Shown: positions 46,198-63,811, counted from the first letter of the stretch. The stretch is 64,000 nucleotides of DNA from an uncultured Dehalococcoidia bacterium (GCA_964423835.1 CAYRGJ010000002.1:104608-168607), one strand, 5' to 3'. The notes: a model not told the origin generated them from the sequence alone. Made by a program: numbers and translations.

Positions 46198-49100
46198 TCA
46201 GGCATACACTATATGCAACCTGGGCACAGCGCCGCCTTCATACGGCAGGCTGACAAAGCTGGCTCCTGACGAACCGCCCTCGTCCTCCACAAAGATGAGG
46301 ACAGTCCCGTCGGAGTAGGTGTTGGAGTCGACCAACTCCTGTATTAGGGCGGCCAGGTCGGGAGAGTCGCGATAGGCCCAATCGCCGGATTCGCTGGTCC
46401 AGACGCCGGCGGCGGTAGTCCTGGTCCTGCTCCCGTAGTCGGCCGGGCTGGATGGAGCCATTGGATCACCTGAGTCCTCGGCCCGCACCATGAGGGCGGT
46501 GGCATTGTCCCACCGGGCGTTGACCATCTCCAGGCGTGCTTCCAGGATGACCGCATTCTGGGGCAGAGTGATACCGGTGAAACGGAACCAGGCGCCGTAG
46601 AGCTGGCTGTTGTCGGTTCGGGAAAGCTCATCGAAGTACCCCCACGTCGTGGAGAAGTTGTCGGTACCCTCCTCCAGGCTCACCAGGATTTCGCCGCCAG
46701 TTGCCGGCTCCTCGACGGTGATGGTGACGGCCTCGGAGTCGGTCAGCAGGCCATCGGAGACCTCGAACCGGATGTCGGGGAAGACGCCGGCCGAGCCGGG
46801 CGTCCAGGAGAAGGAACCGGTCAGGTCATCAAACGAGGCCCCGTCGGGCAGGTTGGAGGCGGAGAAGGTGAGGTTGTCGCCGTCGGGGTCGCTGGCCGCA
46901 ACGTCGATGGTCAGAAGCTGGTCGACAACCGCCGTCTGGTCGCCGACCGGGTCCAGCACGGGAGGCTGGTTGGCCGGCACCGGCTCCTCGACGGTGATGG
47001 TGATGGCCTCGGAGTCGATCAGCAGGCCGTCCGAGACCTCGAACTGGATGTCGGGGAAGACGCCGGCGGAACCGGGCGTCCAGGAGAACGAGCGTGTGGC
47101 GGGATCAAAGGCAGCCCCGTCAGGCAGGTTGGACGCGGAGAAGGTGAGGTTGTCGCTGTCGGGGTCAGTGGCCGCAACGTCGAAGGTCAGCAGCTGGTCA
47201 ACAATCGCCGTCTGGTCGCCGATCGGGTCCAGCGCGGGGGGCTGGTTGGGAGGCGGAGGCGCTTCATTGACGGTGATGGTAATGACCTCGGAGTCGGTCA
47301 GCAGGCCGTCGGAGACCTCGAACTGGATGTCGGGGAAGACGCCGGCCGAACCGGGCGTCCAGGAGAAGGAACCGGTCAGGGCATCAAACAAGGCCCCGTC
47401 GGGCAGGTTGGAGGCGGAGAAGGTGAGGTTGTCGCCGTCGAGGTCGCTGGCCGCAACGTCGAAGGTCAGAAGCTGGCCCACGACGGCTGTCCTGTCGCCG
47501 ACCGGTTCCAGCACCGGAGGCTGATCGGCGGGCGCTGGCTCCTCGATGGCGTCCAGCACGGGAGGCTGGCTGGCCGGCGTTCCGCTGCCGCCGTACTTGA
47601 TATACAGCCGGGGAATGGAGCCGCTCTCATATGTGAGCGGCACGAACTCCGCCCCGGACGCACTGCCGTTGTTGTCCAGCAGGATCAGGATGGTCCCGCC
47701 GGAGTAGCTGTACGAGTTGACCAGCTCCTGGATGACCGGCGCCAGGTTCGGTGAGTCGTGGTAGGCCCAGTCGCCGAAACCGCTGGTCCAGGCTACGCCG
47801 GCCGATGTGCGCGCCCTGGAGGTGTGATCGGCGGTGCTGGAAGGCGCAGAGGGGTTGGCCGATTTCTCGGCCCGTATATTGAGGATGGTGCCACTGCCCC
47901 AGCTGGCGTGCGCCATCTCCAGGTGCGCCTCCTCGATTACCGCTCCCGGCGGTATGGTAACGTCCGTGAATCGCAGCCAGGCATTGTAGGGCTGGCCGGC
48001 CTCGGACCAGTTGAGCGTGCTGTAGTATCCCCAGGCGCCGGAGAACCCGTCATCGGCGCCCGATGCCAGGCTGACCAGCAGGTCACCGCCGGAAGAGGGC
48101 TCAAAGACGTTGATGGTGATGGCCTCGGAATCGGTCAGCAGGCCGTCGGAGACCTCGAACACGATGTTGGGATAGACGCCGGTAGCAGCCGGCGTCCAGG
48201 AGAAGGAACCGGTCACGGTATCAAACGAGGCCCCGCCGGGCAGGTTGGATGCGGAGAAGGTCAGGCTATCGCCGTCGGGGTCGCTGGCGGCGACATTGAA
48301 GGACAGCTGCTGGCCGACCAGAACCGTCCTGCCACCGATGGCATCCAGCACCGGAGGGCGGTTGGCGGGCGTTCCGCTGCCGCCGTACTTGATGAACAGC
48401 CTGGGGACGGAGCCGCTCTCAAAGGAGCTGCTGACGAAATCCGCCCCGGCCGCGCTGCCGTTGTTGTCCAGCAGGATCAGCATGGTCCCGCCCGAGTAGC
48501 TGTACGTATCTACCAGCTCCTGGATGACCGGCGCCAGGTTCGGAGAATTGTGGTAGGCCCAGTCGCCGAAACCGCTGGTCCAGGCCACGCCGGCCGAGGT
48601 GCGCGCCCTGGAGTTGTGATCGGCGGTGCTGGAAGGCGCAGAGGGGTTGGCCGATTTCTCGGCCCGTATATTGAGGCTGGTACCACTGCCCCAGCTGGTG
48701 TGCACCATCTCCAGGTGCGCCTCCTCGATTACGGCCCCCGGCGGTATGTTCACGTCCGTGAAGCGCAGCCAGGCATTGTAGGGCTGGCCCGCCTGGGACC
48801 AGACAAGCGTGCTGTAGTATCCCCAGGCGCCGGAGAACCCGTCATCCGCGCCCGATGCCAGGCTGACCAGCAGGTCACCGCCGGAGGAGGGCTCAAAGAC
48901 GCTTACGGTGATGGCCTCGGAATCGGTCAGCAGGCCGTCGGAGACCTGGAATACGATGTTGGGATAGACGCCCGTGGCGGCCGGCGTCCAGGAGAAGGAA
49001 CCGGTCACGGTGTCAAACGAGGCCCCTCCCGGCAGGTTGGATGCGGAGAAGGTCAGGCTATCGCCGTCGGGGTCGCTGGCGGTGACATTGAAGGACAGCT

Positions 49101-52100
49101 GCTGGCCGACCAGAACCGTCCTGTCACCGATGGCATCCAGCACCGGAGCCCGGTTGGCCGGCGTTCCGCTGCCGCCGTACTTGATGAACAACCTGGGGAC
49201 GGAGCCGCTCTCAAAGGAGGTGCTGACAAAATCCGCCCCGGCCGCGCTGCCGTTGTTGTCCAGCAGGATCAGGATGGTCCCCCCGGAATAGCTATACGTA
49301 TTCACCAGCTCCTGGATGACCGGCGCCAGGTCCGGCGAGTTGTGGTAGGCCCAGTCGCCGAAACCGCTGGTCCAGGCAGCAGCCGCGGAGGTGCGCACCC
49401 TGGAGGTGTGGTCCGCAGCGCTGGAAGGCGCCGAGGGGCTGGCCGATTTCTCGGCCCGTATATTGAGGCTGGTGCCACTGCCCCAGCTGGTGTGCACCAT
49501 CTCCAGGTGCGCCTCCTCGATTACGGCCCCCGGCGGTATGTTCACGTCCGTGAAGCGCAGCCAGACATTGTAGGGCTGGCCGGCCTGGGACCAGGCGAGC
49601 GTGCTGTAGTACCCCCAGGCGCCGGAGAACCCGTCATCCGCGCCCGATGCCAGGCTGACCAGCATCTCACCGCCGGCTGAAGGCTCATAGACACTGATGG
49701 TGATGGCCTCGGAATCGGTCAGCAGGCCATCGGAGACCTCGAACCGGATGTCGGGATAGACGCCGGTGGCAGCCGGCGTCCAGGAGAAGGAACCAGTCAC
49801 GTTATCCAGCGAGGCCCCTTCCGGCAGGTTCGACGCCGAGAAGGTCAGGTCGTCACCGTTGGGGTCCGTGGCCGCGATATCGAAGGAGAGCTGCTGGCCG
49901 GCTATCGCCGTCTTGTCGCCGATCGGCTGCAGCACCGGAGGCTGATTCGTGGTCGGGTTTGTGCTATACCTGATGTACAGCTGGGGCGGCGAATTCCCTT
50001 CAAACGTGAAGCCGACATGCTCAGCGCTGCTTGAGCTCCCGTTGTTGTCAACAAGAATCTGGATGGATCCTCCCGAGCTGTAGTCAAAGCTGTTGACCAG
50101 CTCCTGAATGACCGCACTGATATCGGGCGACGCATGCCATCCCGAGTCGGAGTAGCCTGAGGGCCAGTCGACCGCCGTCACAGTCCTCACCCTGGACGCG
50201 TGGTCGCTGGTGCTGGCGGGCGCAGACGGGTCCGCCGCCTTCTCCGCCTGTATCTTCAGATGGGCGCCACTGTCCCACCGGTACTGCTGCAGGTTCAAGT
50301 GCGCTTCCAGCACCACGGAACCCTGGGGTACGGTGACATCATTGAAGCGAAACCAGCCGTTATACCACTGGCCGATCTCGTACCAGGCCTGGTCCCGGTA
50401 GTATCCCCAGGCTCCGGAGAAACCGTCGTCCGCTCCGGCTGCTACGGACAGGGTGAGCTCATACTCCTGCCCCGGCTGGGGACTGACCGAAATGGAGACG
50501 TCCTCCCAGTCGGTCATCATGCCATCGGACACCTCAAAGTGGACCACGTAGACGCCTCTGGTGTCCGGCGTCCAGGAAAATGACCGGGATCCGGCATCGA
50601 AGGAAGCCCCTTCAGGCAGGTTCGAAGCTGAGAACAGGAGGCTGTCACCGTCAGGATCGCTGCCCGAGACGGTGAAGCTGATGGGATTGCCGATCGTTGC
50701 GTCCTGGCTGCCGATGGGATCGAGCACCGGGGCCTGATTGGGGCTGACCGGCTGGAACTCGAATGGGGTGCTGGGCACCTCCGCCAGCGAGCCGGCGGAG
50801 CCCGGCGGATACAGGAAGTAGTTGCCGCCCGATTGCACGATGTCATGATTCGCCGAGCTGAATGACCCCGGCGTCTCCGAGAAGGCCAGCCGAAGCGTGT
50901 CTCCTACTGTGGTCTCATTGACCAGGTAGAGGCTGGTTTTGGCCTGAAGGGCCTCATTCTGGCCGGCATTGTCGATCTCCAGGATCATCTGGTCGGGCAG
51001 CCAGCGGGCATCCAGATAGCCGGACCTCGACTCCAGCACCTGCCCCAGCCCGCCGGTGGTCAGCCAGCGATAGAACGGATAGTGTGTGGCCACGTAGTCA
51101 GCCCAGATCACGTAGGCGTCAAAGACCTGGGCCATGGTGACGTCGGTGTACCCGGATGCGGCCAGCATGTCGCTCTCGTCCGGATGTGTGAAGATAACGT
51201 AGGGCGCCCCGCTTTCCATCATGCACCTCAGCATGGCCCAGCAATGGTAGTACTCGTCCGAATCCGGACGGCTGAAAAGGAAGAAGTCTCCCTGCACCCG
51301 GGGGAGGTTGTACATATCTGTGCCCGGCTCCAGGCCGTAGTCTCTGTAGGTCACGGGGTAGGTGATGTCTTCGGCCGGATACGGGTCACCGTCAGCATCA
51401 CGGGCGTTCTCGCTTTCAGTGGATGAATTGTCCGAGCCCTCCTGGCTGGTGCCCGCTTCCGAGACGGCCAGTGCGGCGGCTGAACCGCCGGAGGCCTCCT
51501 CTTCCTTGAAGTGGACGCCAACGTACCTGACGTCCGTCCTGGCATCAAGCGACTGGTACCCATAGGCGCCGATGCACTCCATGGGGGCCACATACGAGAC
51601 GATCTGAGGGAGCTGCATGCCGTAGCTGCTCTGGAGGCGGTCCCGGAGCTGCTGAGTCGCCGCTATCATGGCATCAACCTCGGCGTCTACCCCCGCTGCG
51701 TCATCCCAGTAGGCCTGGTCCAGCGGGTAGTGCGTTTGGCCGCAGTGCCAGCCGATCTCGTGCCCATCCTTGAGGAACTGGTAGACCCCATTCACGGATT
51801 CCGGATACCACCAGAAGTCGCTGGTGGAGCCTGAATACGAGAAGGCCACAAAGATCGAAGACTTGAGGTTGTACTCTCTGAGCAGCCTGGAGAAGTTCCC
51901 GATGAAGTCATAATGCAGTTGCTGCAATTGCTCCGGGGTGTAGTAGCTCCTGGTGCAATCATCGACTTCCACCACTCCGGCATTGACCGGAGAGCTCAGG
52001 CCGACCGGCATTGAGTAGAGAATGGCCTGCATGAGGATGCCCTGGAGATAGAGGGTGCCCGGCAGGTTGGTGTTGAAGAAAACCGTCTTGCCATTGCCAT

Positions 52101-52722
52101 ACCGGCTTACCCATATGGCGGGATTCCCGTAGGCCGTGTCGTGGGCAACCACGACCGCGCTTTCGGATACGGCATGGTCGAACAGCAGCATGCCGGCATC
52201 GGGTATGGTCTCCCCGGCATAGGCAAAGGTAAACTCGTCTCTCTCTATGAAGATCCCTTCCGAGGTCACATACTGCGTTCCCAGGGTAGTTATGCCGAAC
52301 ATGGCTGCCAGGTGGGTGTTCACGTAATCGGGCTGAAGAGCCACGGCCCCGGCGCCCATGCTGACCACATTGACGATGGCATCGGAGTTTGAGGCGTCAA
52401 GGGCCTCGCCAGGCACGTTGATCAGTATGGTGGAGTACAGCGGGCTGCCGGCATCATCCAGGAATGAGTAGTGCTGGCCGGCGGAGATGTCCAGCGCTTC
52501 CCATGGTATCCGGTTCGTGTCGAGCAGCCGCCGCACGCCCTGAAAAGGCGGGGACTCTGTGTCATACAGGGGATTCGACTCATCGACAATTATGCCGGCC
52601 TTGATGGGTATGCTGATGCCATCAGCTCCTTCTGATGGACGATCTACAAGGAGAGCCGTCGACAGTGCGAGCGTGATCCACAGGATAGCCATCATCATCC
52701 GGAGCCACTTCATCTGACACAT
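46198..52722 (-). CDS. giant secreted protein: signal peptide, ~620-aa polysaccharide-deacetylase-like region, 7 He_PIG/cadherin-like Ig domains, 5 copies of an unclassified ~170-aa module
   Basis: 2174-aa uninterrupted ORF. MKWLRMMMAILWITLALSTALLV signal. VEVDDC ... GWHCGQTHYP in the N-terminal region. Repeats of PVLDxIGD...DPDGDxLTFSASNLPxGAxFD...FSWTP alternate with GADDGFSGAWGYY...LRFTDV.IPPGAVIEEAHLEM... The true start may be ATG at 52713. Confidence 0.9.
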   Translation of the reverse strand: MCQMKWLRMMMAILWITLALSTALLVDRPSEGADGISIPIKAGIIVDESNPLYDTESPPFQGVRRLLDTNRIPWEALDISAGQHYSFLDDAGSPLYSTILINVPGEALDASNSDAIVNVVSMGAGAVALQPDYVNTHLAAMFGITTLGTQYVTSEGIFIERDEFTFAYAGETIPDAGMLLFDHAVSESAVVVAHDTAYGNPAIWVSRYGNGKTVFFNTNLPGTLYLQGILMQAILYSMPVGLSSPVNAGVVEVDDCTRSYYTPEQLQQLHYDFIGNFSRLLREYNLKSSIFVAFSYSGSTSDFWWYPESVNGVYQFLKDGHEIGWHCGQTHYPLDQAYWDDAAGVDAEVDAMIAATQQLRDRLQSSYGMQLPQIVSYVAPMECIGAYGYQSLDARTDVRYVGVHFKEEEASGGSAAALAVSEAGTSQEGSDNSSTESENARDADGDPYPAEDITYPVTYRDYGLEPGTDMYNLPRVQGDFFLFSRPDSDEYYHCWAMLRCMMESGAPYVIFTHPDESDMLAASGYTDVTMAQVFDAYVIWADYVATHYPFYRWLTTGGLGQVLESRSGYLDARWLPDQMILEIDNAGQNEALQAKTSLYLVNETTVGDTLRLAFSETPGSFSSANHDIVQSGGNYFLYPPGSAGSLAEVPSTPFEFQPVSPNQAPVLDPIGSQDATIGNPISFTVSGSDPDGDSLLFSASNLPEGASFDAGSRSFSWTPDTRGVYVVHFEVSDGMMTDWEDVSISVSPQPGQEYELTLSVAAGADDGFSGAWGYYRDQAWYEIGQWYNGWFRFNDVTVPQGSVVLEAHLNLQQYRWDSGAHLKIQAEKAADPSAPASTSDHASRVRTVTAVDWPSGYSDSGWHASPDISAVIQELVNSFDYSSGGSIQILVDNNGSSSSAEHVGFTFEGNSPPQLYIRYSTNPTTNQPPVLQPIGDKTAIAGQQLSFDIAATDPNGDDLTFSASNLPEGASLDNVTGSFSWTPAATGVYPDIRFEVSDGLLTDSEAITISVYEPSAGGEMLVSLASGADDGFSGAWGYYSTLAWSQAGQPYNVWLRFTDVNIPPGAVIEEAHLEMVHTSWGSGTSLNIRAEKSASPSAPSSAADHTSRVRTSAAAAWTSGFGDWAYHNSPDLAPVIQELVNTYSYSGGTILILLDNNGSAAGADFVSTSFESGSVPRLFIKYGGSGTPANRAPVLDAIGDRTVLVGQQLSFNVTASDPDGDSLTFSASNLPGGASFDTVTGSFSWTPAATGVYPNIVFQVSDGLLTDSEAITVSVFEPSSGGDLLVSLASGADDGFSGAWGYYSTLVWSQAGQPYNAWLRFTDVNIPPGAVIEEAHLEMVHTSWGSGTSLNIRAEKSANPSAPSSTADHNSRARTSAGVAWTSGFGDWAYHNSPNLAPVIQELVDTYSYSGGTMLILLDNNGSAAGADFVSSSFESGSVPRLFIKYGGSGTPANRPPVLDAIGGRTVLVGQQLSFNVAASDPDGDSLTFSASNLPGGASFDTVTGSFSWTPAATGVYPNIVFEVSDGLLTDSEAITINVFEPSSGGDLLVSLASGADDGFSGAWGYYSTLNWSEAGQPYNAWLRFTDVTIPPGAVIEEAHLEMAHASWGSGTILNIRAEKSANPSAPSSTADHTSRARTSAGVAWTSGFGDWAYHDSPNLAPVIQELVNSYSYSGGTILILLDNNGSASGAEFVPLTYESGSIPRLYIKYGGSGTPASQPPVLDAIEEPAPADQPPVLEPVGDRTAVVGQLLTFDVAASDLDGDNLTFSASNLPDGALFDALTGSFSWTPGSAGVFPDIQFEVSDGLLTDSEVITITVNEAPPPPNQPPALDPIGDQTAIVDQLLTFDVAATDPDSDNLTFSASNLPDGAAFDPATRSFSWTPGSAGVFPDIQFEVSDGLLIDSEAITITVEEPVPANQPPVLDPVGDQTAVVDQLLTIDVAASDPDGDNLTFSASNLPDGASFDDLTGSFSWTPGSAGVFPDIRFEVSDGLLTDSEAVTITVEEPATGGEILVSLEEGTDNFSTTWGYFDELSRTDNSQLYGAWFRFTGITLPQNAVILEARLEMVNARWDNATALMVRAEDSGDPMAPSSPADYGSRTRTTAAGVWTSESGDWAYRDSPDLAALIQELVDSNTYSDGTVLIFVEDEGGSSGASFVSLPYEGGAVPRLHIVYA
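46693..47571. repeat. three consecutive Ig-like (He_PIG-type) domain repeats of ~276-324 bp
   Basis: Protein repeats NQPPxLDPxGDQTAxVDQLLTxDVAAxDPDxDNLTFSASNLPDGAxFD..FSWTPGSAGVFPDIxFEVSDGLL occur three times. Confidence 0.8.
47572..49947. repeat. 3 x 792-bp near-identical tandem repeat (one Ig-like domain plus one ~170-aa module per unit) inside the giant gene
   Basis: Unit boundaries at 47572, 48364 and 49156 were derived from the protein repeats. Long stretches at a 792-nt offset are almost identical by eye (for example 47749, 48541 and 49333). Confidence 0.9.
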
Positions 52723-53103
52723 CCTTCCTTTGCTGGTGCCGCATCCAGCGCCGCTGCCGGCAAACGAGACCCGCCGGCGGGCCGCATATTCAAACTATGG
52801 ACTGGCATGGGGCAACAGGGGTACTAGTGTGGCACACAGTTCGGCCGGGCAGACTTACGTATTTCCGGCTAGTCACTACCTAGGCCGGGGCGGTCCATCG
52901 CCAATGCCACTGTGACTGATTTGTGAGATACGGGTTGGTACTGGACCTGCAGACCAGCCGGGAGCGGGCTTTGTGAGGGATCTGTGAGGAAAACTAAGTA
53001 TTCTACCAATTGAACTGGACGGGCCTTTTTTGGGACAATTTAGGCTGGTGTGCGTACGTAGTACATATTCCCGGCACGCCGAAATCAAGTGTGGAGGTAA
53101 AGT

Positions 53104-54786: not shown

Positions 54787-54813
54787 GACCCGCGCCAAAG
54801 CCCACTTAAAGGA

Positions 54814-54850
54814 AGAGGAGATCCCCCCGGGGATCTCCTTTCCTGTTTCT
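54814..54850 (+). terminator. intrinsic terminator
   Basis: GGAGATCC(54817-24)-cccc gg-GGATCTCC(54831-38), extended by A-U/G-U pairs and followed by TTTCCTGTTTCT. Confidence 0.6.
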
Positions 54851-56774: not shown

Positions 56775-56827
56775 GTTGCGATCGGGCTCCGGCGGGCAGC
56801 GCGTCGGGCGCGGGCAAGTTGGCTCAT

Positions 56828-57493
56828 ATGCCGATATCAATTCTGCTGGTCGAAGAGCATGCCATGGTCAGGAAGGGGGCCAGGTGCCTTCTCGAAGCCT
56901 TCCCCGAGTACGAGGTGGTGGGCGAGGCCAGCCATGGGTTGGATGCCGTCAGACTGATAACCGAGCTGCAGCCCGACCTGGTGGTGACGGAGCTGCAGCT
57001 GAAGGACCTGGGCGGGTCTGAGCTGGTGCGGCGGATGGGAGAGCTCTCACCTCAGACCAGGATTATTGCGCTCACCCAGTACGACAGCGAGGAGCATGTG
57101 CTCGATGCCCTGCGCGCCGGCGTGAGAGGCTACATTCTCAAGGGAGACAGCCTGGATGAGATAACCAAGGCCATAGAGCAGGTAATGGCCGGCCACTGCT
57201 ATCTCAGCCCCTCCATCCTCTGCCTGGCCATCAATGCGCTGCTGCAGAGGAAGACTGATGGCGTTCAAGACAGCTACGCCACCCTCACCACCAGGGAACG
57301 TGAGGTGCTCATGCTCTCGGCCCAGGGTCTCAGCAACGCCGAGATCGCCGAGAAGCTCTACATCAGCAAGCGCACGGTGGACGTGCACCGCGCCCATCTG
57401 CTGCGCAAGCTGGGATTGAGGACTCAACGCAACCAGCTGCAGGACTACGCCATCAAGGCGGGCATCCTGCCGCCAGAGTGGGAAGAGGAGTGA
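56828..57493 (+). CDS. NarL/FixJ (LuxR-HTH) response regulator with Glu at the phospho-acceptor position
   Basis: ILLVEEH.., PDLVVTELQLKDLGG (canonical NarL has ..LLDLNMPG..), ALTQY, ILKGD. C-terminal LTTREREVLMLSAQGLSNAEIAEKLYISKRTVDVHR. Confidence 0.85.
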   Translation: MPISILLVEEHAMVRKGARCLLEAFPEYEVVGEASHGLDAVRLITELQPDLVVTELQLKDLGGSELVRRMGELSPQTRIIALTQYDSEEHVLDALRAGVRGYILKGDSLDEITKAIEQVMAGHCYLSPSILCLAINALLQRKTDGVQDSYATLTTREREVLMLSAQGLSNAEIAEKLYISKRTVDVHRAHLLRKLGLRTQRNQLQDYAIKAGILPPEWEEE

Positions 57494-57507
57494 TGGCGCC
57501 GGTGATA

Positions 57508-58443
57508 TCAGGGCCTTCCGCCGGGCACAGCCGCTGACCTGTAGTAGCTGGCGGCCAGGCGTATCCCCTGAGCAAAGCTCACCCTGGATGACCATCCCAG
57601 CTCCCCGGAGGCCTTCCGGCAATCCAGCGACATGTGAGTGATCTCGCCGGGGCGCATCAGCTCGTATCTGGGAAGACCCCGGAAGTCCAGCTCGGCGCCC
57701 AGGGCATCGAACACAGCCTGGTCGGGAGTCTGTTCCGGGGTGCCGATGTTGAAGACCCCCTGGCAGGCGCTCTCGATGGCGGTCAGATTGGCTCTGGCCA
57801 CGTCCTCCACATAGACATAGGACCTGGTCTTGTCCCCCGCGCCGAAGATGGTCGGCTGCCGGCCACAGAGCATCTCGTGGGCGAACAGCGGCACCACGCC
57901 AGCCTCGCCATTCGACCTCTGCCGTGGCCCGAAGACATTCGAATAGCGCAGCGCCACGAACGCCAGCCCGTACAGGGACTGGTACACCTGCAGGTAGAGC
58001 TCCACGGCGTACTTGGATACGCCATAGGGTGACAGCGGGCATATCGGGTGCTTCTCGGCCACCGGCAACTGCTGCGGGTTGCCGTAGATGGCGCACGAGG
58101 AGGCGTAGACCACCTTCCTGATGCCCGCCTTCACGCCGCAGCCCAGGACATTGAGGCTGCCCCTGGTGTTCACCTCCGCGTCATACTGGGGGTCCTCTAT
58201 GGACCTGGTCACGCTGGTTTGGGCCGCCTGGTGACAGATGACCTCGGGCCTTTCCGCCGCCAGCACCCGCCCCAGCTCGGCATCGCCGATACTCAGTTGA
58301 TGGAACGCGGCGGCCGGGTGGATGTTGTCCCTGGAGCCGCCCGAGAGATCGTCCACCACGACCACCTCGTGCCCCCGCAGCAGGGCCAGATCCACTATGT
58401 GAGAGCCAATGAAGCCTGCGCCGCCAGTCACCAGTATCTTCAA
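57508..58443 (-). CDS. NAD-dependent sugar-nucleotide epimerase (GalE family)
   Basis: (M)KILVTGGAGFIGSH.., SPYGVSK (YxxxK). TTG at 58443 sits 7 nt after AAGGAG. Confidence 0.85.
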   Translation of the reverse strand: MKILVTGGAGFIGSHIVDLALLRGHEVVVVDDLSGGSRDNIHPAAAFHQLSIGDAELGRVLAAERPEVICHQAAQTSVTRSIEDPQYDAEVNTRGSLNVLGCGVKAGIRKVVYASSCAIYGNPQQLPVAEKHPICPLSPYGVSKYAVELYLQVYQSLYGLAFVALRYSNVFGPRQRSNGEAGVVPLFAHEMLCGRQPTIFGAGDKTRSYVYVEDVARANLTAIESACQGVFNIGTPEQTPDQAVFDALGAELDFRGLPRYELMRPGEITHMSLDCRKASGELGWSSRVSFAQGIRLAASYYRSAAVPGGRP

Positions 58444-58476
58444 GTTCAATCTCCTTCACTCAGGCCCGGAGGCCCT

Positions 58477-59202
58477 TCACGCTCCAGGAACGCTGTGCGC
58501 GGCGGCGCCCCGGCCGATGGCGGAGACGTAGGCCTCGAACCAGAGGGGCAGGGACAGATAGGAGTTGGTGACGTAGCAGTAGCGCAACCCTTCCTCCCAG
58601 GCTCTGAGGGTGAGCCTCACCGCATCCTCCAGAGTATGCCTGGCCCCCAGGCCGGTGACGCTGATCCGCCGGCCGAACTTCCTCTGCGTCTCTGTGAGAG
58701 GCTGCCCGCGCCATTGCTCCGTCGAGTGCATGAAGTCGAAACCGCCGCCGGTGAAAAACCAGGCGTCGAAGTCATCTTGTCCCACGTTTCCCCAGGCCAC
58801 CAGCTGGTGCTCATGGGCCACACGGGTGAGCTCCTTCAGGTAGGCCTTTGCCCCAGGGTCCGGAAAGGCGCTGCATTCGTCGATGAAGACGCCGCTGACC
58901 CCGTCGTTCTTCGCCATGGAGACCACCAGCCGGCGGTTGGTTTCCAGGGAATACCACTGGGGGCCTATGCTGCCGCCGCTTCTGGTCCCTTCATAGCCCG
59001 AAGTGATGTACCCCACGGGTTGCACCCCCTCGCCCTTGAAAGCATCCAGCTCCCGGCTGGACCATCCGGCGCTGCGCCCGTTGACGTTCCCCCAGAGCCC
59101 GTGGGCCGTGTTGCAGACCAGGTATTCAGGAAGGCACGCCAGTATGCGCGCCGAGGCGCGCGCGCTTGTCTCTCCGTAGTAGACGAGGCTGAGCTTCACC
59201 AC
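58477..59202 (-). CDS. Spherulin-4/GH135-GH114-like TIM-barrel protein without a signal peptide (paralog of residues ~40-280 of 53104-54786)
   Basis: LPEYLVCNTAHGLWG, VGYITSGYEG, VSGVFIDECSAFP, VAWGNVG, FDFMHSTEQW, colinear with the secreted paralog. Confidence 0.6.
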   Translation of the reverse strand: MVKLSLVYYGETSARASARILACLPEYLVCNTAHGLWGNVNGRSAGWSSRELDAFKGEGVQPVGYITSGYEGTRSGGSIGPQWYSLETNRRLVVSMAKNDGVSGVFIDECSAFPDPGAKAYLKELTRVAHEHQLVAWGNVGQDDFDAWFFTGGGFDFMHSTEQWRGQPLTETQRKFGRRISVTGLGARHTLEDAVRLTLRAWEEGLRYCYVTNSYLSLPLWFEAYVSAIGRGAAAHSVPGA

Positions 59203-59238
59203 GTCCCTGCCCTCACTTTCTCCATGGCGGATGACATG

Positions 59239-60084
59239 CTACCGGGCCACCACCGGCTCGTCCAGTATGTGCTCGAATCCGGCTATCACATCGGGTTCAT
59301 CCATGGACCTCATCTTCTCCTCCATCCTCTCCCCCATCCGGAGACCGATGAGGCGGACCCTGGTGCTGCCATTCCCGTATTTCTGCAGCGCCTCTCCGAT
59401 CAGGTCCTTCAGCAGGACGGCATCACCGTGAGGAGTGAAGTAGACCTTGCCGTTTTCACCGCGCTCCAGCACGGCCATATAGAGCTTCACCACTCCATCG
59501 ACAGAGGTGTAGAACCGCCTCATGTCCGGGTGGGTGACAGTGATCTCGTTGAATTCCCGGATCTGGTTTACCCAGATATCCATCACGCTGCCGGTAGATC
59601 CCAGGATGTTGCCGGACCGGATGACCATGAATCGGGGGCCCTTGGACTTGGAAGCGCGTTGCTTCACCAGTCTCTCGCAGACCAGCTTGGTGGCGCCGTA
59701 GCAGTTGCAGGGCTCCACCGCCTTATCCGTGGACATCAGGATGAAGGTTTCCCCCTCGAAGGCCCGGAGCATGTTGAGCGTGCCCAGGACGTTAATGGTG
59801 GCGCCCTCCTCGCATTCCTCCTCGCACAGGTCCACCCGCTTCATCGCGGCCAGGTGAATCACGGTGTCCTTGCCCTTGAGGGCGCCCCTGACAAAGGTCT
59901 CATCCCGGATGTCGCCTACACTGAGCCTGAGCGCCGGACTGGAAACCTCGCACTGCAGCTTCGATATGCCGCCCTCGCTGCGAGAGAGAGACGTCACCTC
60001 CACATGGGGGTACCGCCTCAGTAGCTCCTTCAACAGATGCCTTCCCACAAAACCGCTGCCGCCCGTAACCAGAATCCTCTTCAT
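59239..60084 (-). CDS. PseB/FlaA1/CapD-type UDP-sugar 4,6-dehydratase-like SDR (short form)
   Basis: ILVTGGSGFVG.., MSTDKAVEPCNCYGATK, IRSGNILGSTGSV, THPDMRRFY, IGLRMGERMEEKM. The ATG overlaps the upstream stop codon (ATGA). Confidence 0.8.
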   Translation of the reverse strand: MKRILVTGGSGFVGRHLLKELLRRYPHVEVTSLSRSEGGISKLQCEVSSPALRLSVGDIRDETFVRGALKGKDTVIHLAAMKRVDLCEEECEEGATINVLGTLNMLRAFEGETFILMSTDKAVEPCNCYGATKLVCERLVKQRASKSKGPRFMVIRSGNILGSTGSVMDIWVNQIREFNEITVTHPDMRRFYTSVDGVVKLYMAVLERGENGKVYFTPHGDAVLLKDLIGEALQKYGNGSTRVRLIGLRMGERMEEKMRSMDEPDVIAGFEHILDEPVVAR

Positions 60085-61484
60085 TTCTGCTTCTCCTCCT
60101 CCTCTACCTCAGGACTCTTAACCCTCTCCTCCCTGGCCAGCTTGAGAGAGCTCATCGTTGCATAGTGGAAGATGTGATACTCAAAGGAGTGCAGAGTCCG
60201 CAGGGTGACCAGCAGACTCAGCAGGCCCGCGGCAAGGCTTCCAGCGAGGAAGCCAAGCGCGGCAAACCACGTGCTGAACCTCAGGAGCGGGATGGCCCCC
60301 ACTTCAGCCACGCAAACCATCAGCACGGAAAGGGTCGGAATCCGCATGTTGCCGAAAAGGGACAGAACCATGTAGTTGAAGATGATGGTGCTGAAGATGA
60401 TGCTCCCCGCGCCGACCGTCAGCAGGACCTTCATCACGGTGCCCGTGTCGCCGGGGAACAGCAGCCTGGCCAGGCCAACTGCGCCGGCCAGAAATGCCAG
60501 GCCGAACAGAAGCGTCATAGCCAGGTCTCTCCAGTACAGCTTCTTGTATTCATTGGCTGTTCGCCGGATATCGGAGAACCTCCCCTGGTACATCGCCTTG
60601 ACCAGGGGGGCGGCCCTCGCTTCGAAGTGGATCGTCGTTCCCAGACTGAACAGGGGGACAAGGCCCAGGAAGGCTCCGAAGGTATAGGGGCTGCTTATGA
60701 CCAGGCCGCCGCCTGACCGGCTGCCCATCCACAGCCAGACGATCAGCTTGTCTGCGAACACCGCGATAGCGTACAGGATGGGGAACACCGAGGCCCATGG
60801 GTTTCGGCGCAGCAGACTGATTATCGACGACTGCAGGCCCGCCGCCGGCTCCGTCCGGTCGAAGGCTTCCCGCAGGGTGAAAACGGCGCTGGCCAGCAGG
60901 GTCAGGGCACCCGCGGTGTAGCCCAGGAGGGTCAGCGAAGGGTCCAGGCGGTGCAAGGCGTAGGTCAGCAGGAACTGGACCGAGTAGCCCGAGACGAAGA
61001 CCACAGCGAAGCTCACGTGCTGCCTGGTCGCGGCGTAAGCGCCGGCGACCACCCAGACAAGGGATAGAATGAAGAGCAGCGCGGCAAAGAACCCGAAATC
61101 GATGGCCGAGAGACCGACCATGCCCACCAGGAAGTGATACAGCGCGGCGCTGACGGCAATGGCATAGCCGGCGGAGTACGCGGCGCCGACCCTGAACACC
61201 CTGTCCAGGGCGTCCCGGCCGGATGAGCCGTCGCCGATGATGCCCAGGGTGACCGGAGAGATGCCGGCCGTGCCCAGCAGGCTGAGAATCACAGCGGCCA
61301 TCACCGTTATGGTGAAGAGGTTCAGCGCCTGCGAGTCAAAGCGCGTCAGCGTGATGAAAAGCAGCACCGTTATGGCGAAAGTCAGAATGGCCGGCGCTGT
61401 GGCCACGATGGCCCGGGCCGCAGGTGACAGGGCGCGCTGGGGCCGCGGGGCCGGGAGGCTGTTAGTTATTAGCGGAGCGCTCAT
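60081..61484 (-). CDS. PelG-like polytopic membrane protein
   Basis: 467 aa with about 12 hydrophobic segments. VFADKLIVWLW and a C-terminal LHSFEYHIF resemble my recollection of PelG (..WADKFIFW.., ..LEFETF..). It is overlapped by the 3' end of the PelF-like gene. Confidence 0.6.
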   Translation of the reverse strand: MSAPLITNSLPAPRPQRALSPAARAIVATAPAILTFAITVLLFITLTRFDSQALNLFTITVMAAVILSLLGTAGISPVTLGIIGDGSSGRDALDRVFRVGAAYSAGYAIAVSAALYHFLVGMVGLSAIDFGFFAALLFILSLVWVVAGAYAATRQHVSFAVVFVSGYSVQFLLTYALHRLDPSLTLLGYTAGALTLLASAVFTLREAFDRTEPAAGLQSSIISLLRRNPWASVFPILYAIAVFADKLIVWLWMGSRSGGGLVISSPYTFGAFLGLVPLFSLGTTIHFEARAAPLVKAMYQGRFSDIRRTANEYKKLYWRDLAMTLLFGLAFLAGAVGLARLLFPGDTGTVMKVLLTVGAGSIIFSTIIFNYMVLSLFGNMRIPTLSVLMVCVAEVGAIPLLRFSTWFAALGFLAGSLAAGLLSLLVTLRTLHSFEYHIFHYATMSSLKLAREERVKSPEVEEEEKQK

Positions 61485-62859
61485 CGATTACCGCCTGATA
61501 AAGCTCGGCGAACCGGCTGGCCATGACGCGCACATCGTACTTCTCATTAGCCTCCCGGTTGGCCTTCCGGCCCATTTGGAGCCTCAACTCCCGGTCGCCG
61601 ATCAGAACCCCCAGCTTCTCGGCGAGTTGAGCGGGCTGATCGGGAGGAACCACGTAGCCTGTGCCTTCGACTACGATCTCGGGGACCCCACCCACCGCAG
61701 TGCACACCGATGGCAGGCCGCAGCTCATCGCCTCCAGGAGAGCGTAGGGAACTCCTTCGGAGTGGGAGCTGAGGGCAAAGATGTCCACGTTGTGATACCA
61801 GTACATGGGGTCTACGTGGCCCATGAACTTGAAGCTGTCGCCGATGCCCATCTGGTTGACCAGCCTCAAGCACTCCTGGTAGTAGTCCTCTTCCTGCACC
61901 TCCCCCAGGACCAGGAAGTCCGCCTTTTGCTTGTCCAGGACAATCCTGGCGGCCCTGATCAGCACCTCGATCCCCTTGATGGCCACCACCCTGGCGAAGC
62001 AGGCCACCACCGGGGTGCCTCCGTTTCGAGGTGGCCCGGGCAGGAACCGGTCGACCTCAATGCCGTTTTGGATAATCTCGATCTTTTCGATAGGGAGCCC
62101 CAGCCCGGTCTCAATGGCCACATGTTTCTGGCTGGGCGGCACCACCCGGTCCGAGTACCGGTAGACCGTCTTCACGACGGATTCGGCGAAGAGCATGTTC
62201 TGCTTCCGGAAAAACTCGGTGACGTCGTGCCTGGAGAGCTCCTTCTGTCTTTCAACGAGATAGAGGCCCTGCTCGGTCAGCACCAGGGAGCCACCGTAGA
62301 GCAGCTTACCCATGGCGCTGATGATGCCGGCGTGGCCGGCGCTGAGGGCATGATAGACATCGGCCTTGGGCACCTTCGGCAGCACCGAGAGTATGTCGAA
62401 AACCAGGGAATACAGGTTGAAGATGTTCCAGTAGGACTCCACGAACGGTTCATCGGGAGCGCTGGCCTGGCAGTAGTCAACGATGGAGTCCCAGCAGGAG
62501 CGTGAAACCAGCCAGCTCTTGTCCAGTCCATGATCTCTATAGGCGTCAACGATTACCTCGAGGTCCAGCGGCGCCCCGTGGAGGATGCTCTGCATCGAGT
62601 TCGCCACCGCATCCGAGATCCTGCGGGGCAGCCTGGGCGTCTTCTCGGGAAACGGCGTATTCAGAGGCGCAATGATTATGGAGTCCACGTTGGGCAACCG
62701 GGGGTAAGCCAGCTTGGTGAACTCCGGTGTGGTCACAGCATACACATCAAACCGGGTGGTCTCCATGGCCCTTATAAGGAAATGGGCCAGTGTGCTCAGC
62801 CCGCCAAACCTTATAGGGTAGCTGCCTTCAGTCACCATGCACACCCTCATTGGTTTCAT
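61462..62859 (-). CDS. PelF-like glycosyltransferase (DUF3492-type N-terminal region plus GT4)
   Basis: VCMVTEGSYPIRFGGLS, VYHALSAGHAGI...LVLTEQGLYLVERQKEL, IIQNGIEVDRF, ARVVAIKGIEVLIRA, EGVPYALLEAMSCGLP. ATG at 62859 preferred; TTG at 62898 is possible. Confidence 0.8.
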   Translation of the reverse strand: MKPMRVCMVTEGSYPIRFGGLSTLAHFLIRAMETTRFDVYAVTTPEFTKLAYPRLPNVDSIIIAPLNTPFPEKTPRLPRRISDAVANSMQSILHGAPLDLEVIVDAYRDHGLDKSWLVSRSCWDSIVDYCQASAPDEPFVESYWNIFNLYSLVFDILSVLPKVPKADVYHALSAGHAGIISAMGKLLYGGSLVLTEQGLYLVERQKELSRHDVTEFFRKQNMLFAESVVKTVYRYSDRVVPPSQKHVAIETGLGLPIEKIEIIQNGIEVDRFLPGPPRNGGTPVVACFARVVAIKGIEVLIRAARIVLDKQKADFLVLGEVQEEDYYQECLRLVNQMGIGDSFKFMGHVDPMYWYHNVDIFALSSHSEGVPYALLEAMSCGLPSVCTAVGGVPEIVVEGTGYVVPPDQPAQLAEKLGVLIGDRELRLQMGRKANREANEKYDVRVMASRFAELYQAVIDERSANN

Positions 62860-63005
62860 CTCATCCCCTGATGCAGCGCCCGAGATGGGGCGCATCAATC
62901 GGCTGACTCCATTCTAGGTCGAGGGGAATTCCGGGGAATACGTGCACAATCCACAATGGGCCGGCGCGGAATGCGTAATTGCCGGTAGTTAGTACCTAGG
63001 TGTGA

Positions 63006-63086
63006 GGGCCGCCGCGGGGGTCCGGGCGGAGCGGGGCTGCCGCTGTGGATCCGAGCGGAATGGGGCCGCCGCGGGGATCCGGGCGG
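63006..63086. repeat. two 24-nt direct repeats 57 nt apart, in the region upstream of the PelF-like gene
   Basis: gggccgccgcgggggtccgggcgg (63006-63029) and gggccgccgcggggatccgggcgg (63063-63086), with one mismatch. Confidence 0.6.
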
Positions 63087-63109
63087 CCCCGGGTCTTGGG
63101 CGGCCGCGC

Positions 63110-63811
63110 TCAAAGCGCCAGATTGCCCGGCAGGCCGGGGACCAGGCTGGCCCCATCCCCGGTCAAGTCCGGAATGAGCCCGCGTTCGACGGCGAAGCGG
63201 CCCAGCCTGATGTGAGGCGTACGCAGCCCCAGCTTCCGTATCATGTTGGTACGATGGAGCTCGACGGTGCGCCGGCTTATGCCCAGGCGCGCTGCGATGT
63301 CCTTGTTTGTATAGCCCTCGGCAGCCAGCCTCAGGATCTCGATCTCCCGCGGCGTGAGGCTGTCATAAGGATCCTTCTTCTTCACAGGCCCGTTCTGAAC
63401 GTAGATATCCACGGCCAGGTCCGCCAGCGGGCCTGACAGGTAGTGGTGCCCGGCCAGCACCGCCCTGGCTGCGGCAATGAGGTCCTGGGCCTCGCCGCCC
63501 TTGAGCACAAAGGCCATGGCCCCGGCCGACATGGCCTCGTGTACATACTGCTCATGATCATACATGGAGAAGACAATCACCTTGCTGCAGACGGGCGGGC
63601 GCGTCACCTGCCTGGTTACCTCGAAGCCGCTGATGTTGCTCAGCATCAGGTCGACCACCATGATATCCGGATGCAGGCTCTCCGCCATCCGAATGCCCTC
63701 CAGGCCTTCTCCGGTCTCACCCACCACCTTGAAATCGCTCTGCGTCTCCAGCAGCTTCCTCACTCCATGTCTGACAATGGCATGATCATCGATCACCATA
63801 ATGGAAATCAC
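63110..63811 (-). CDS. NarL/FixJ (LuxR-HTH) response regulator, canonical receiver
   Basis: IMVIDDH.., DIMVVDLMLSNISG, VFSMY, VLKG. C-terminal LTPREIEILRLAAEGYTNKDIAARLGISRRTVELHR. GTG at 63811 is 7 nt after GGAGGAGG. Confidence 0.85.
   Translation of the reverse strand: MISIMVIDDHAIVRHGVRKLLETQSDFKVVGETGEGLEGIRMAESLHPDIMVVDLMLSNISGFEVTRQVTRPPVCSKVIVFSMYDHEQYVHEAMSAGAMAFVLKGGEAQDLIAAARAVLAGHHYLSGPLADLAVDIYVQNGPVKKKDPYDSLTPREIEILRLAAEGYTNKDIAARLGISRRTVELHRTNMIRKLGLRTPHIRLGRFAVERGLIPDLTGDGASLVPGLPGNLAL

Follow-up and report, generated by a model that had tools for sequence, protein, structure and literature searches.

A predicted gene cluster for a Pel-type amino-sugar polymer, without the usual proteins of c-di-GMP control, from an uncultured Dehalococcoidia-like bacterium

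The 64,000-nucleotide stretch of DNA analysed here (the window), from an uncultured Dehalococcoidia bacterium, carries between positions 46198 and 63811 a set of genes that a first-pass annotation had read as an exopolysaccharide locus with a PelF/PelG-like core and a non-canonical accessory set. The locus raises the question of whether these genes specify a Pel-type polymer and, if they do, how synthesis is run and controlled where PelD and PelE are missing. The predicted proteins of the window, nearly all of which were scanned against Pfam, were assigned to families using Pfam and NCBIfam profiles; the DNA covered was the 64 kb window and ~7 kb past its end (L001), out of a contig of 186 kb belonging to an incomplete MAG. 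As judged from its predicted proteins, the locus is a Pel-type amino-sugar polymer gene cluster of a Dehalococcoidia-like bacterium, with the core and deacetylase kept and the usual c-di-GMP control proteins missing. On balance, we think it probable that it directs synthesis of a hexosamine exopolysaccharide that is synthase-dependent and partially de-N-acetylated, and that it does so in the absence of PelD and PelE.

The PelF–PelG core and its neighbours

Positions 57508-62850 (minus strand) form a single tightly packed operon encoding PelF, PelG, a 281-amino-acid (aa) short-chain dehydrogenase/reductase-type protein (SDR), a GH135-like barrel without a leader and an epimerase resembling GalE/PelX. 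Around the operon lie genes for two NarL-type regulators, glmS, and genes for a GH135-like enzyme and a 2174-aa protein, both secreted. All the genes described previously were found, and a third-position GC content of 0.78-0.84 supports their being coding.

The pelF gene (61462..62850, minus strand) encodes a predicted cytoplasmic GT4 glycosyltransferase whose N-terminal domain is a DUF3492 of the PelF type. Its longest open reading frame (ORF) extends to 62898, but alignment with three orthologous loci (L003, L004 and L009) places the conserved start at the ATG at 62850 (MRVCM...), giving a protein of 462 aa; of the span 61462-62859 proposed earlier, the stop was retained and the start was not. 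The protein matched the NCBIfam PelF equivalog NF038011 with 156.4 bits (cutoff 100) over profile positions 2-489 of 489, and the Pfam domains DUF3492 and Glycos_transf_1 with 137.5 and 106.9 bits respectively. The PelF motifs quoted in the first-pass annotation were present in the translation, as was an EX7E motif (residues 365-373). With the equivalog cutoff passed and a full DUF3492 domain, the protein is not a generic GT4 enzyme only. Its best matches beyond the Chloroflexota clade were the PelF proteins of Paenibacillus, Bacillus and Cohnella, at ~30% identity.

The adjoining gene, pelG (60081..61484, minus strand), encodes a polytopic membrane protein and putative exporter with ~12 hydrophobic segments in a hydropathy scan. 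It matched Pfam PelG (PF16933) with 77.9 bits (cutoff 29) over profile positions 28-452 of 452 and no other Pfam family; matches to Wzx, MurJ or a polymerase were absent, consistent with its original designation. The two overlaps reported for the operon were also confirmed: 23 nt between pelF (stop at 61462) and pelG (start at 61484), and an ATGA start/stop overlap between pelG and the SDR gene at 60081-60084.

The PelF–PelG–SDR triad was present in 9/11 distinct related loci, with pelF, pelG and the SDR gene syntenic in L003, L004, L006, L007/L015, L008, L009, L010, L012 and L016; L013 and L014 carried pelFG without the SDR. Hosts of the triad were all Chloroflexota/Dehalococcoidia MAGs except for one 2-kb contig binned as Pirellulales. 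Companions of the triad varied among GalE, GH135, DUF2194, glmS and NarL regulators.

Deacetylase and hydrolases

The N-terminal ~650 aa of the giant secreted protein (50773..52722, minus strand) comprise a signal peptide and a predicted polysaccharide de-N-acetylase of the PelA_DA type (DUF2194; CE26/CBM114-like). This region matched DUF2194 with 38.1 bits (cutoff 30.4), and a profile of 9 homologs of the N-terminus matched B. cereus PelA_DA (9ZAU) with E 3.7e-15. Residues D254/D255, H326/H331 and P380 aligned to PelA_DA D262/D263, H350/H354 and P405, and R475 and H513/E516 to R458 and H488/D491. By these alignments the region is homologous to PelA_DA, the deacetylase of monoderm Pel systems, and keeps every catalytic and metal-binding motif. 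Foldseek searches with a structural model of moderate confidence (pLDDT 71.7) returned the NDST1 N-deacetylase and PelA (9CGY) as top matches, and Agd3 (CE18, 6NWZ) was absent from the top 50. Shorter homologs of the deacetylase end in a C-terminal membrane anchor. PelA_DA has been shown experimentally to deacetylate alpha-1,4-GalNAc oligosaccharides (PMC13254593), and Gram-positive PelA has DUF2194 (PMC7890745). The earlier description of a deacetylase-like N-terminus was thus right as to enzyme type but not in counting it as non-canonical; because the deacetylase is of the monoderm Pel type, the accessory set is less exotic than first thought.

The C-terminal ~1520 aa of the same protein (46198..50772, minus strand) consist of seven He_PIG/Big_9 Ig-like domains (He_PIG, 257 bits in 7 stretches) alternating with five copies of an unannotated 168-aa domain, an array that is putatively polymer- or surface-binding. 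Copies of the 168-aa domain are 53-92% identical among themselves and had no sequence match in Pfam or the PDB. The gene also contains a DNA tandem repeat at 46704-47546.

Two barrel proteins are encoded in the window. The first, a 241-aa GH135/Spherulin4-like (beta/alpha)8 barrel (58477..59202, minus strand), begins 36 nt from the upstream stop, has no hydrophobic N-terminus and is presumably cytoplasmic. Its AF2 model (pLDDT 95.6) gave Sph3 as the top Foldseek match (5D6T and 5C5G, E 1.9e-9, TM 0.67), with the PelA hydrolase domain PelA_H (5TCB) at rank 6. Residues D108, E109 and E162 were invariant across 33 homologs, and the 54-residue spacing of D108 and E162, a candidate catalytic pair, is near the 56 residues of the Sph3 Asp-Glu pair. 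We take the Sph3 catalytic pair to be Asp166 and Glu222. The Asp is printed as Asp196 in PMC12054363.

The second, a predicted secreted hydrolase of 560 aa (53104..54786, plus strand), has a hydrophobic N-terminal segment (residues 4-37) and a GH135 domain 45% identical to the 241-aa barrel, followed by one He_PIG Ig domain (43.4 bits) and one 168-aa domain with 53% identity to the giant-protein repeats. It scored 34.6 bits against Pfam Spherulin4 (cutoff 30.2), and the 241-aa barrel a sub-cutoff 20.2 bits. A sub-threshold GH114 signal was also seen in the window (18.4 bits, cutoff 27). The Spherulin4 match and the structural matches to Sph3 and PelA bear out the proposed relationship of these barrels to the GH135 clan. 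Immediately beyond the window, at about 64039-64857 (L001), is the gene for a third GH135-like paralog, which carries a membrane anchor at its N-terminus. A terminator-like hairpin at 54814-54841 follows the 3' end of the secreted hydrolase gene.

Precursor enzymes and the identity of the polymer

The last gene of the operon (57508..58449, minus strand) encodes a predicted GalE/PelX-like UDP-hexose/HexNAc 4-epimerase, with Y142xxxK present and an Epimerase match of 205 bits in Pfam. The nearest solved structures were T. maritima UDP-glucose 4-epimerase (4ZRM, E 8.7e-77), 2P5U and 6WJB/6WJ9 (E 7e-52), the last of which we take to be P. protegens PelX. A candidate 4-epimerase of the GalE/PelX type for UDP-GalNAc supply is therefore among the components present. 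Hexosamine supply is represented by glmS, encoding glutamine-fructose-6-phosphate aminotransferase (55005..56774, plus strand; TIGR01135, 690.6 bits, cutoff 418), which is syntenic with the Pel-like locus in L003, L006, L008, L009, L010 and L016; L008 additionally has GlmM-like and GlmU-like genes.

Each of the families GH114, GH135, GH166 and GH191 consists of endo-alpha-1,4-galactosaminidases (PMC12054363). One relative, L016, carries a GH114 protein at this position in place of GH135, which favours a GalNAc/GalN polymer. What the comparisons establish is the family to which each protein belongs, the order of the genes, how that order is conserved and that catalytic motifs are retained. The polymer is probably GalNAc/GalN-rich, although its sugar identity, like the topology and regulation described here, is what we infer from gene content. 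In the favoured reading, GlmS would feed the hexosamine pool and the GalE/PelX-like epimerase would convert UDP-GlcNAc to UDP-GalNAc. Soluble PelF would polymerise the sugar at the cytoplasmic face, and PelG, translationally coupled to it, would move the chain across a single membrane. Outside the cell, the PelA_DA-type domain would strip some N-acetyl groups to give a cationic polymer, the array of Ig-like and 168-aa domains would keep the deacetylase on the polymer or cell surface, and the secreted and membrane-anchored GH135-like endo-galactosaminidases would trim the product. The GH135-like enzyme without a signal peptide may work on the growing chain from the cytoplasmic side, in chain release or length control. 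To our knowledge there is no precedent for a cytoplasmic glycoside hydrolase in synthase-dependent systems.

The protein that fits least readily into this scheme is the 281-aa SDR (59239..60084, minus strand), a PseB/PglF/CapD-like protein and putative UDP-GlcNAc 4,6-dehydratase. We know of no role for a dehydratase in the Pel pathway, nor of a counterpart in known Pel systems for either the SDR step or the signal-less GH135-like step. The SDR matched Polysacc_synt_2 with 209.5 bits in Pfam but fell below equivalog level in NCBIfam (PseB, 173.8 bits, cutoff 407.75; FnlA, 121.8 bits, cutoff 730). Its match to PseB ends at profile position 269 of 324, with ~50 C-terminal residues missing. The nearest solved structures were Pen (6BWC), the FnlA-like 4J2O and PseB (2GN4), with E 1e-35 to 1e-37, and the catalytic residues T119-D120-K121 and Y129xxxK133 were kept, with GxxGxxG also present. 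Among 1.84 billion representatives, only two full-length clusters (defined at 50% identity) exceeded 55% identity to it; by these comparisons it forms a distinct short subfamily that is small and clade-restricted. The embedded 4,6-dehydratase-type SDR noted previously is thus real, and conserved in relatives. Most likely it would produce UDP-4-keto-6-deoxy-HexNAc, the source of a second, minor or terminal sugar.

Because the SDR is better conserved across relatives (52-87% identity) than PelF or PelG (PelG, 31-68%), its product may instead be central. Carried further, this becomes a different glycan: a PelF/PelG polymer mainly of the dehydratase product (a 6-deoxy-HexNAc, for example QuiNAc or FucNAc, or a derivative), with the GalE-like protein as a 4-ketoreductase and an end product that might serve in the envelope as a structural or S-layer-associated polysaccharide rather than as a Pel-like biofilm matrix. 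Besides being more strongly conserved than any other protein of the locus, the SDR retains the TDK and YxxxK of UDP-GlcNAc 4,6-dehydratases, is translationally coupled to pelG, belongs to a small, clade-restricted subfamily and is present in three copies in L016, while the Dehalogenimonas locus (L007/L015) keeps it and has no close GalE ortholog. Placement of glmS, and of the GlmM-like and GlmU-like genes in L008, is also as for a major housekeeping UDP-GlcNAc sink. Nevertheless, we consider this glycan unlikely: the GalE-like protein is far nearer true 4-epimerases (E 8.7e-77) than a 4-reductase should be, no sugar aminotransferase or acetyltransferase was found in the operon, L013 and L014 do without the SDR, and alpha-1,4-GalNAc/GalN polymers are what the PelA_DA-type deacetylase and the GH135/GH114 enzymes are all associated with.

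Control of the locus and comparison with described systems

Both NarL-type regulators reported at the locus were confirmed and are conserved in relatives. Regulator 1 (56828..57493, plus strand; Response_reg and GerE) probably starts at 56828 (221 aa) and not at 56723. It is atypical, with Glu replacing the phospho-acceptor Asp: in a NarL-guided alignment, the L-D-L of NarL corresponds to T-E-L in both the window and L009 and to T-E-M in L003, and the acidic pair is degenerate. Regulator 2 (63110..63811, minus strand; Response_reg 83.6 bits, GerE 68.4 bits) has a canonical DD...D receiver and lies upstream of pelF on the same strand, an arrangement kept in L003, L004 and L006. Two conserved non-coding blocks (62934..62999, minus strand), TAGGTAsTAaCT...CAaTTACGCA and GTGCACGTATT, lie 85-150 nt upstream of the pelF start. 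When the window was aligned with L003, L004 and L009, the columns of these blocks did not vary, while the intergenic sequence around them had diverged; no match to the sigma-70 consensus was found, and the blocks are candidate promoter or regulator sites.

No PelD was detected as a PF16963, GGDEF or GAF protein among the predicted genes of the window or in L001, nor in the Pfam-annotated +/-10 kb of L003, L004, L006, L007 and L008, and nothing PelD-like was seen among ORFs spot-checked in L010, L013, L014 and L016; for L009 and L012, the comparison of the flanks was limited to proteins encoded in the window. For PelE, sequence methods, which a very divergent PelE could escape, gave no TPR match and no unannotated transmembrane ORF near the operon, and no unannotated membrane protein was conserved in the locus. 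The first-pass observation that PelD, PelE, PelB and PelC are missing from the locus therefore stands, and extends to the relatives. The organism probably uses c-di-GMP, because the window encodes two PAS-HD-GYP proteins. We infer that control is probably exerted on transcription by the pair of conserved NarL-type regulators rather than by binding of c-di-GMP to PelD.

The locus could instead encode an ordinary monoderm pelDEA(DA)FG-type Pel whose synthesis is still c-di-GMP-gated, with pelD and pelE elsewhere in the genome, since only 64 kb (and the ~7 kb beyond) of a 186-kb contig from an incomplete MAG was seen. The PAS-HD-GYP proteins would suit this arrangement, as would a GAF-GGDEF-HD-GYP protein adjoining the GalE-like gene in L010, although its architecture is not PelD-like; furthermore, 'pel-like' pelFG-only clusters may hold very divergent homologs of other pel genes, according to epsSMASH (10.64898/2025.12.21.693542). 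We think it rather improbable, however, given that everything else is clustered and yet neither gene was recognised in the 10 kb around pelF in five relatives with Pfam-annotated flanks or among the flanking ORFs spot-checked in four more, that no unannotated membrane protein is conserved in the locus, and that described Gram-positive systems have pelD and pelE inside the operon (PMC7112168).

If the PelD- and PelE-free form that we favour is pressed to its strongest version, PelF and PelG would be a minimal c-di-GMP-independent synthase, with the 4,6-dehydratase and cytoplasmic GH135 as integral parts, making a novel cationic polymer that contains a 6-deoxy amino sugar; if true, this would be a major component of the envelope or matrix of Dehalococcoidia-type Chloroflexota. 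All of this together seems unlikely. Against the PelD- and PelE-free form in general, work on the P. aeruginosa PelDEFG complex is reported to show that PelD and PelE are required for Pel synthesis and for PelF membrane association, and we know of no demonstration of a PelF/PelG pair working alone. In B. cereus, deleting single pel-operon genes abolishes EPS production (PMC7112194). A catabolic locus, in which secreted enzymes degrade foreign Pel/GAG-type polymers beside unrelated glycosylation genes, is highly improbable: three GH135-like hydrolases and a secreted deacetylase with binding-module arrays do resemble a polysaccharide-foraging toolkit, but throughout the clade the genes for the hydrolases and the deacetylase keep their synteny with pelF-pelG, glmS and the epimerase gene, one GH135 gene lies within the synthase operon, and no sugar transporter or GalN/GalNAc catabolic genes were found in the window.

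Since its deacetylase is a PelA_DA homolog, the locus is closest to Gram-positive pelDEA(DA)FG minus pelDE, and not to the fungal galactosaminogalactan (GAG) cluster. Shared with the Gram-positive reference, Bacillus cereus ATCC 10987 (PMC7112168, PMC7890745, PMC13254593), are the PelF (DUF3492 and GT4)/PelG core, a GalE-type epimerase, an extracellular PelA_DA/DUF2194 deacetylase with the same catalytic motifs, an endo-galactosaminidase gene unfused to the deacetylase, and the absence of PelB/PelC, which fits a single-membrane organism. The separate hydrolase of the B. cereus system is PelA_H-like. The present locus differs in lacking PelD/PelE, in having GH135-like rather than GH166-like hydrolases, with three paralogs of which one has no signal peptide, in the PseB/PglF-like SDR coupled translationally to pelG, in fusion of the deacetylase to a ~1500-aa array of Ig and unknown domains, and in the conserved neighbourhood of glmS and two NarL-type regulators.

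Reported 'pel-like' pelFG-only clusters (PMC7112194 S3 Fig iii; epsSMASH, 10.64898/2025.12.21.693542) likewise have pelF and pelG with the remaining canonical genes undetected, but the Chloroflexota configuration is not described there, and a literature search found no report joining pelF with a Chloroflexota taxon name. With P. aeruginosa pelABCDEFG the locus shares homologous PelF and PelG, at low sequence identity, and the overall order of polymerisation, export, then deacetylation and hydrolysis; it has neither PelB/PelC (outer-membrane export) nor PelD/PelE, and where P. aeruginosa has a fused PelA it has a hydrolase and a deacetylase that are distinct proteins from different families. 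The epimerase also resembles 6WJB, which we take to be P. protegens PelX. With the fungal GAG cluster (uge3, gtb3, agd3, sph3, ega3) it shares a probably cationic GalNAc/GalN product and Sph3 (GH135) as the nearest structural match of the barrels, whereas the synthase here is PelF/PelG and not Gtb3, and the deacetylase is nearer PelA_DA (CE26) than Agd3 (CE18).

A compact operon with a PelF–PelG core

Strong third-position GC (0.78–0.84) backs the coding of all ten genes in 46198-63811, for which the first-pass annotation had claimed a Pel-like exopolysaccharide locus, and every peptide motif quoted there was recovered in the translations. Five of the genes form a compact operon on the minus strand (57508-62850): pelF, pelG, the gene for a 281-aa SDR (a PseB/PglF-like putative dehydratase, 59239-60084), a GH135-like barrel gene (241 aa, 58477-59202) and a GalE-like gene (313 aa, 57508-58449). 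The pelF and pelG reading frames share 23 nt, an ATGA overlap joins pelG to the SDR gene, and the other gaps within the operon are 27–36 nt. A sigma-70 consensus scan gave no promoter match in the locus, and an Rfam scan returned a single tRNA, with neither a riboswitch nor a glmS ribozyme near the locus.

The glycosyltransferase was matched over its full length by the NCBIfam PelF equivalog NF038011 (156.4 bits, cutoff 100), and carries DUF3492 (137.5 bits) and a GT4 C-terminal domain bearing the EX7E motif. Since it passes the equivalog cutoff and contains DUF3492, it is a PelF-type enzyme and not merely a generic GT4; NCBI already names proteins of this group PelF. The adjoining membrane protein, with about 12 hydrophobic segments, matched PelG (PF16933, 77.9 bits, cutoff 29) as its sole family, and a Wzx/MurJ identity was therefore rejected. 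The Pel-type interpretation is thus supported, none of the three contrary outcomes (a generic glycosyltransferase, another kind of membrane protein, or barrels unrelated to the GH135/GH114/GH166 clan) having been observed. One refinement concerns the deacetylase-like protein, which proves to be a homolog of the monoderm Pel deacetylase PelA_DA.

Pel is among the most widespread bacterial biofilm polymers, and to our knowledge its synthase has been characterised solely as a c-di-GMP-gated PelD/E/F/G complex. Nearly all predicted genes of the window were scanned against Pfam, precomputed Pfam annotation covered L001 (sequence reaching about 7 kb past the window end) and the ±10-kb flanks of five relatives, and larger flanking ORFs were spot-checked in four further relatives. 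No PelD_GGDEF, PelD-like GAF/GGDEF or TPR protein was found among these, bearing out, for the stretches scanned, the earlier remark that neither PelD nor PelE is visible in the window; unannotated small ORFs near the operon encode no transmembrane segments. Compared with the monoderm Pel system, the locus works alike and has three defining proteins in common, but two membership features, PelD and PelE, were not found in it and the hydrolase is of another family. Surveys have noted 'pel-like' clusters with pelFG only (PMC7112194; epsSMASH preprint 10.64898/2025.12.21.693542). With neither Gtb3 nor a CE18 deacetylase, the locus does not qualify as a GAG cluster. A conserved PelF+PelG system without PelD/PelE would, if true, reveal the components that polymerisation and export really require, and offer a compact construct for reconstitution.

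GH135-like barrels and a PelA_DA-like deacetylase

The barrel proteins, one of which had been called Spherulin-4-like and the other its paralog, both resemble GH135. The 560-aa secreted protein (53104-54786) matched Spherulin4 (34.6 bits, cutoff 30.2) and He_PIG, while the 241-aa protein scored 20.2 bits, under the same cutoff. A single-sequence search of solved structures with the latter gave spurious matches only, and its likeness to Sph3 emerged from structure prediction and fold search: the AlphaFold model was very confident (pLDDT 95.6), and its best PDB matches were to Sph3 (GH135; E 1.9e-9, TM 0.67), with the PelA hydrolase domain at rank 6. D108, E109 and E162 are invariant across 33 sequences. 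The spacing of the invariant acidic pair, 54 residues, is close to the 56 of Sph3 if the nucleophile of the latter is Asp166, as we assume in counting to Glu222. The catalytic residues of Sph3 are printed as Asp196 and Glu222 (PMC12054363). The 37 homologs of the 241-aa protein are mostly 232–240 aa long and open directly at the first beta-strand (MVRLNLVYYG...); signal or lipoprotein leaders are present in other members of the family. In the window the gene lies just 36 nt from the upstream stop, leaving no space for a leader, and the protein is therefore presumably cytoplasmic. The locus ties bacterial Pel machinery to GH135, which is known chiefly from the fungal GAG pathway, and would put a glycoside hydrolase at the cytoplasmic side of the membrane. 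Immediately outside the window (L001:6050-6868, approximately window 64039-64857) is a third GH135-like paralog, whose N-terminus carries a membrane anchor, and beyond it is a gene for a 180-aa protein without a Pfam match.

The minus-strand gene at 46198-52722 encodes a 2174-aa secreted protein that matched DUF2194 (38.1 bits, cutoff 30.4) and gave seven He_PIG and seven Big_9 matches; residues 1–650 comprise the signal peptide and the DUF2194 domain. A single-sequence search of solved structures with this domain gave a marginal match (E 0.0099), and its assignment needed a profile search: a nine-homolog profile matched PDB 9ZAU (E 3.7e-15), which is B. cereus PelA_DA, the enzyme on which CE26/CBM114 was founded and a deacetylase of alpha-1,4-GalNAc oligomers (PMC13254593). 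DUF2194 is carried by Gram-positive PelA, according to a review (PMC7890745). Residue counting along the profile–9ZAU alignment places D254/D255 opposite PelA_DA D262/D263, H326/H331 opposite H350/H354 (with a one-residue insertion), P380 opposite P405, R475 opposite R458 and H513/E516 opposite H488/D491. An AF2 model of the domain was of moderate confidence (pLDDT 71.7). 9ZAU was absent from its Foldseek matches, probably because the fold library, with entries to 8 April 2026, is older than the release of 9ZAU; the NDST1 N-deacetylase and PelA 9CGY therefore rank top.

In the remaining approximately 1520 residues, Ig-like He_PIG domains alternate with five copies of a domain of about 168 aa that begins GADDGFSGAWGYY (aa 755-919, 1018-1185, 1282-1449, 1546-1713 and 2010-2173; window 46198-50772). 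One further copy forms the C-terminus of the 560-aa GH135-like protein (aa 390-557, window 54271-54774), and the domain was also found in three related loci (L003, L009 and L010). Neither Pfam nor the PDB sequences yielded a match to it, and it may represent a new carbohydrate-binding module. In shorter deacetylase homologs, a C-terminal membrane anchor takes the place of the repeat array. At the DNA level the gene contains a tandem repeat at 46704-47546 (276-nt period, 83% matches) and 792-nt repeat units at approximately 47580-49670, whose 264-aa protein units are 85–92% identical; the sequence being a metagenome assembly, the repeat copy number may be unreliable.

Sugar enzymes and the proposed polymer

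GlmS was matched by TIGR01135 (690 bits). The 313-aa SDR (Epimerase, 205 bits) is nearest to true 4-epimerases (T. maritima 4ZRM, E 8.7e-77) and also matches 6WJB, which we take to be PelX (E 7e-52). The 281-aa SDR (Polysacc_synt_2, 209.5 bits) has Pen, FnlA, PseB, CapE and PglF as its nearest solved relatives (E 1e-28 to 1e-37) and retains Thr-Asp-Lys and YxxxK, the catalytic residues of UDP-GlcNAc 4,6-dehydratases; it is without about 50 C-terminal residues and scores far under the PseB and FnlA equivalog cutoffs. When 1.84 billion cluster representatives were scanned, just two full-length clusters lay above 55% identity, with the next at 44% and the bulk near 37%, and by this measure the protein forms a small, distinct subfamily. 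Within the set it is also the best conserved, as L006 illustrates (SDR 62%, PelF 46% and PelG 36% identity). In the main rival to a Pel-type product, the chain would be built chiefly from what the dehydratase makes, and would be a polymer other than Pel.

For the Pel-type reading, family identities, motifs, gene coupling and synteny are established here; sugar identity, topology and control we infer. GlmS would supply hexosamine, the epimerase would make UDP-GalNAc, PelF would polymerise it and PelG would export the chain across the single membrane. Outside the cell, the PelA_DA-type domain, held in place by the repeat array, would partially de-N-acetylate the polymer, and the secreted and anchored GH135-like enzymes would trim it. 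Two parts are left unexplained by this model, the roles of the dehydratase and of the signal-less hydrolase. The former probably adds a 6-deoxy-HexNAc-derived sugar, and may thereby alter the sugar chemistry of the polymer; the latter may act on the growing chain at the cytoplasmic face, cutting or releasing it.

Distribution, synteny and control

PelF homologs at 40–85% identity are all metagenomic, the named ones being from Dehalococcoidia, Dehalococcoidales, Dehalogenimonas or Chloroflexota. PelF of Paenibacillus, Bacillus and Cohnella follows at about 30%. Among 185,579 GTDB species representatives this PelF clade was found in only eight loci (L009-L016), seven named Dehalococcoidia or Chloroflexota and one on a 2-kb contig binned as Pirellulales. 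Other matches from the contig scan were discarded, being mostly generic actinobacterial GT4 genes that align to the C-terminal half alone. In the literature searched, no paper links pelF to Chloroflexota or describes a Chloroflexota pel locus; the locus offers a first, concrete candidate for how uncultured Dehalococcoidia-like Chloroflexota may make a matrix or envelope polysaccharide.

Synteny, which the first-pass annotation had proposed surveying, was assessed over 11 distinct related loci. pelF-pelG-SDR recurs in nine (L003, L004, L006, L007/L015, L008, L009, L010, L012 and L016), and L013 and L014 have pelFG only, without the SDR. A GalE-like gene is adjacent in 7 of the 11, GH135-like genes occur in seven (one to four copies each), glmS in six, with additional GlmM-like and GlmU-like genes in L008, DUF2194 proteins in L003, L006 and L007, and NarL-type regulators in nearly all. 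In L016 (12777-19186), which comes from a Chloroflexota 'tar biofilm' MAG, pelG is followed by the short SDR in three tandem copies, and a DUF2341-GH114 protein stands in for the GH135-like enzymes. A XerC-type integrase gene lies beyond the window end (L001:3893-4882), and GC at 40001-64000 (0.59–0.65) is somewhat below that of the first 32 kb (0.65–0.70). These features raised the idea of a genomic-island origin, which was rejected as the chief explanation since synteny of the locus extends over relatives at 40–85% PelF identity.

Two NarL-type regulators (Response_reg plus GerE) flank the operon, at 56828-57493 on the plus strand and 63110-63811 on the minus strand. The receiver of the second is canonical. 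In the first, Glu occupies the phospho-acceptor position and the acidic pocket is degenerate (EE or EG versus DD); both traits are kept in its L003 and L009 orthologs, and this regulator may therefore act without phosphorylation. Four loci have in common two conserved sequence blocks upstream of pelF (62934-62999 in the window). Most simply, control of the locus would be transcriptional, through the two conserved regulators. The organism probably uses c-di-GMP, even though its pel-like locus is without PelD. Elsewhere in the window (among 17729-19228, 19263-22028 and 25112-27629) are genes for two PAS-HD-GYP (HD_5) proteins, one with a MEDS domain, and for a CHASE4-HAMP-HisKA_2 kinase accompanied by a single-domain response regulator. 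Within this clade, a c-di-GMP link to the locus is hinted at only in L010 (9706-12303; Dehalococcoidia), where the gene for an 865-aa GAF-GGDEF-HD-GYP protein directly adjoins the GalE-like gene.

Three small paralogs (126–141 aa; 40354-40734, 40881-41306 and 45743-46162) share a C-terminal EWLVKE-like motif and lack both a Pfam match and a transmembrane segment. A 770-aa protein (32264-34576) contains PEGA, fn3 and Pur_ac_phosph_N-like repeats; faint fn3 and Pur_ac_phosph_N signals also occur in proteins next to the pel-like loci L007 and L008.
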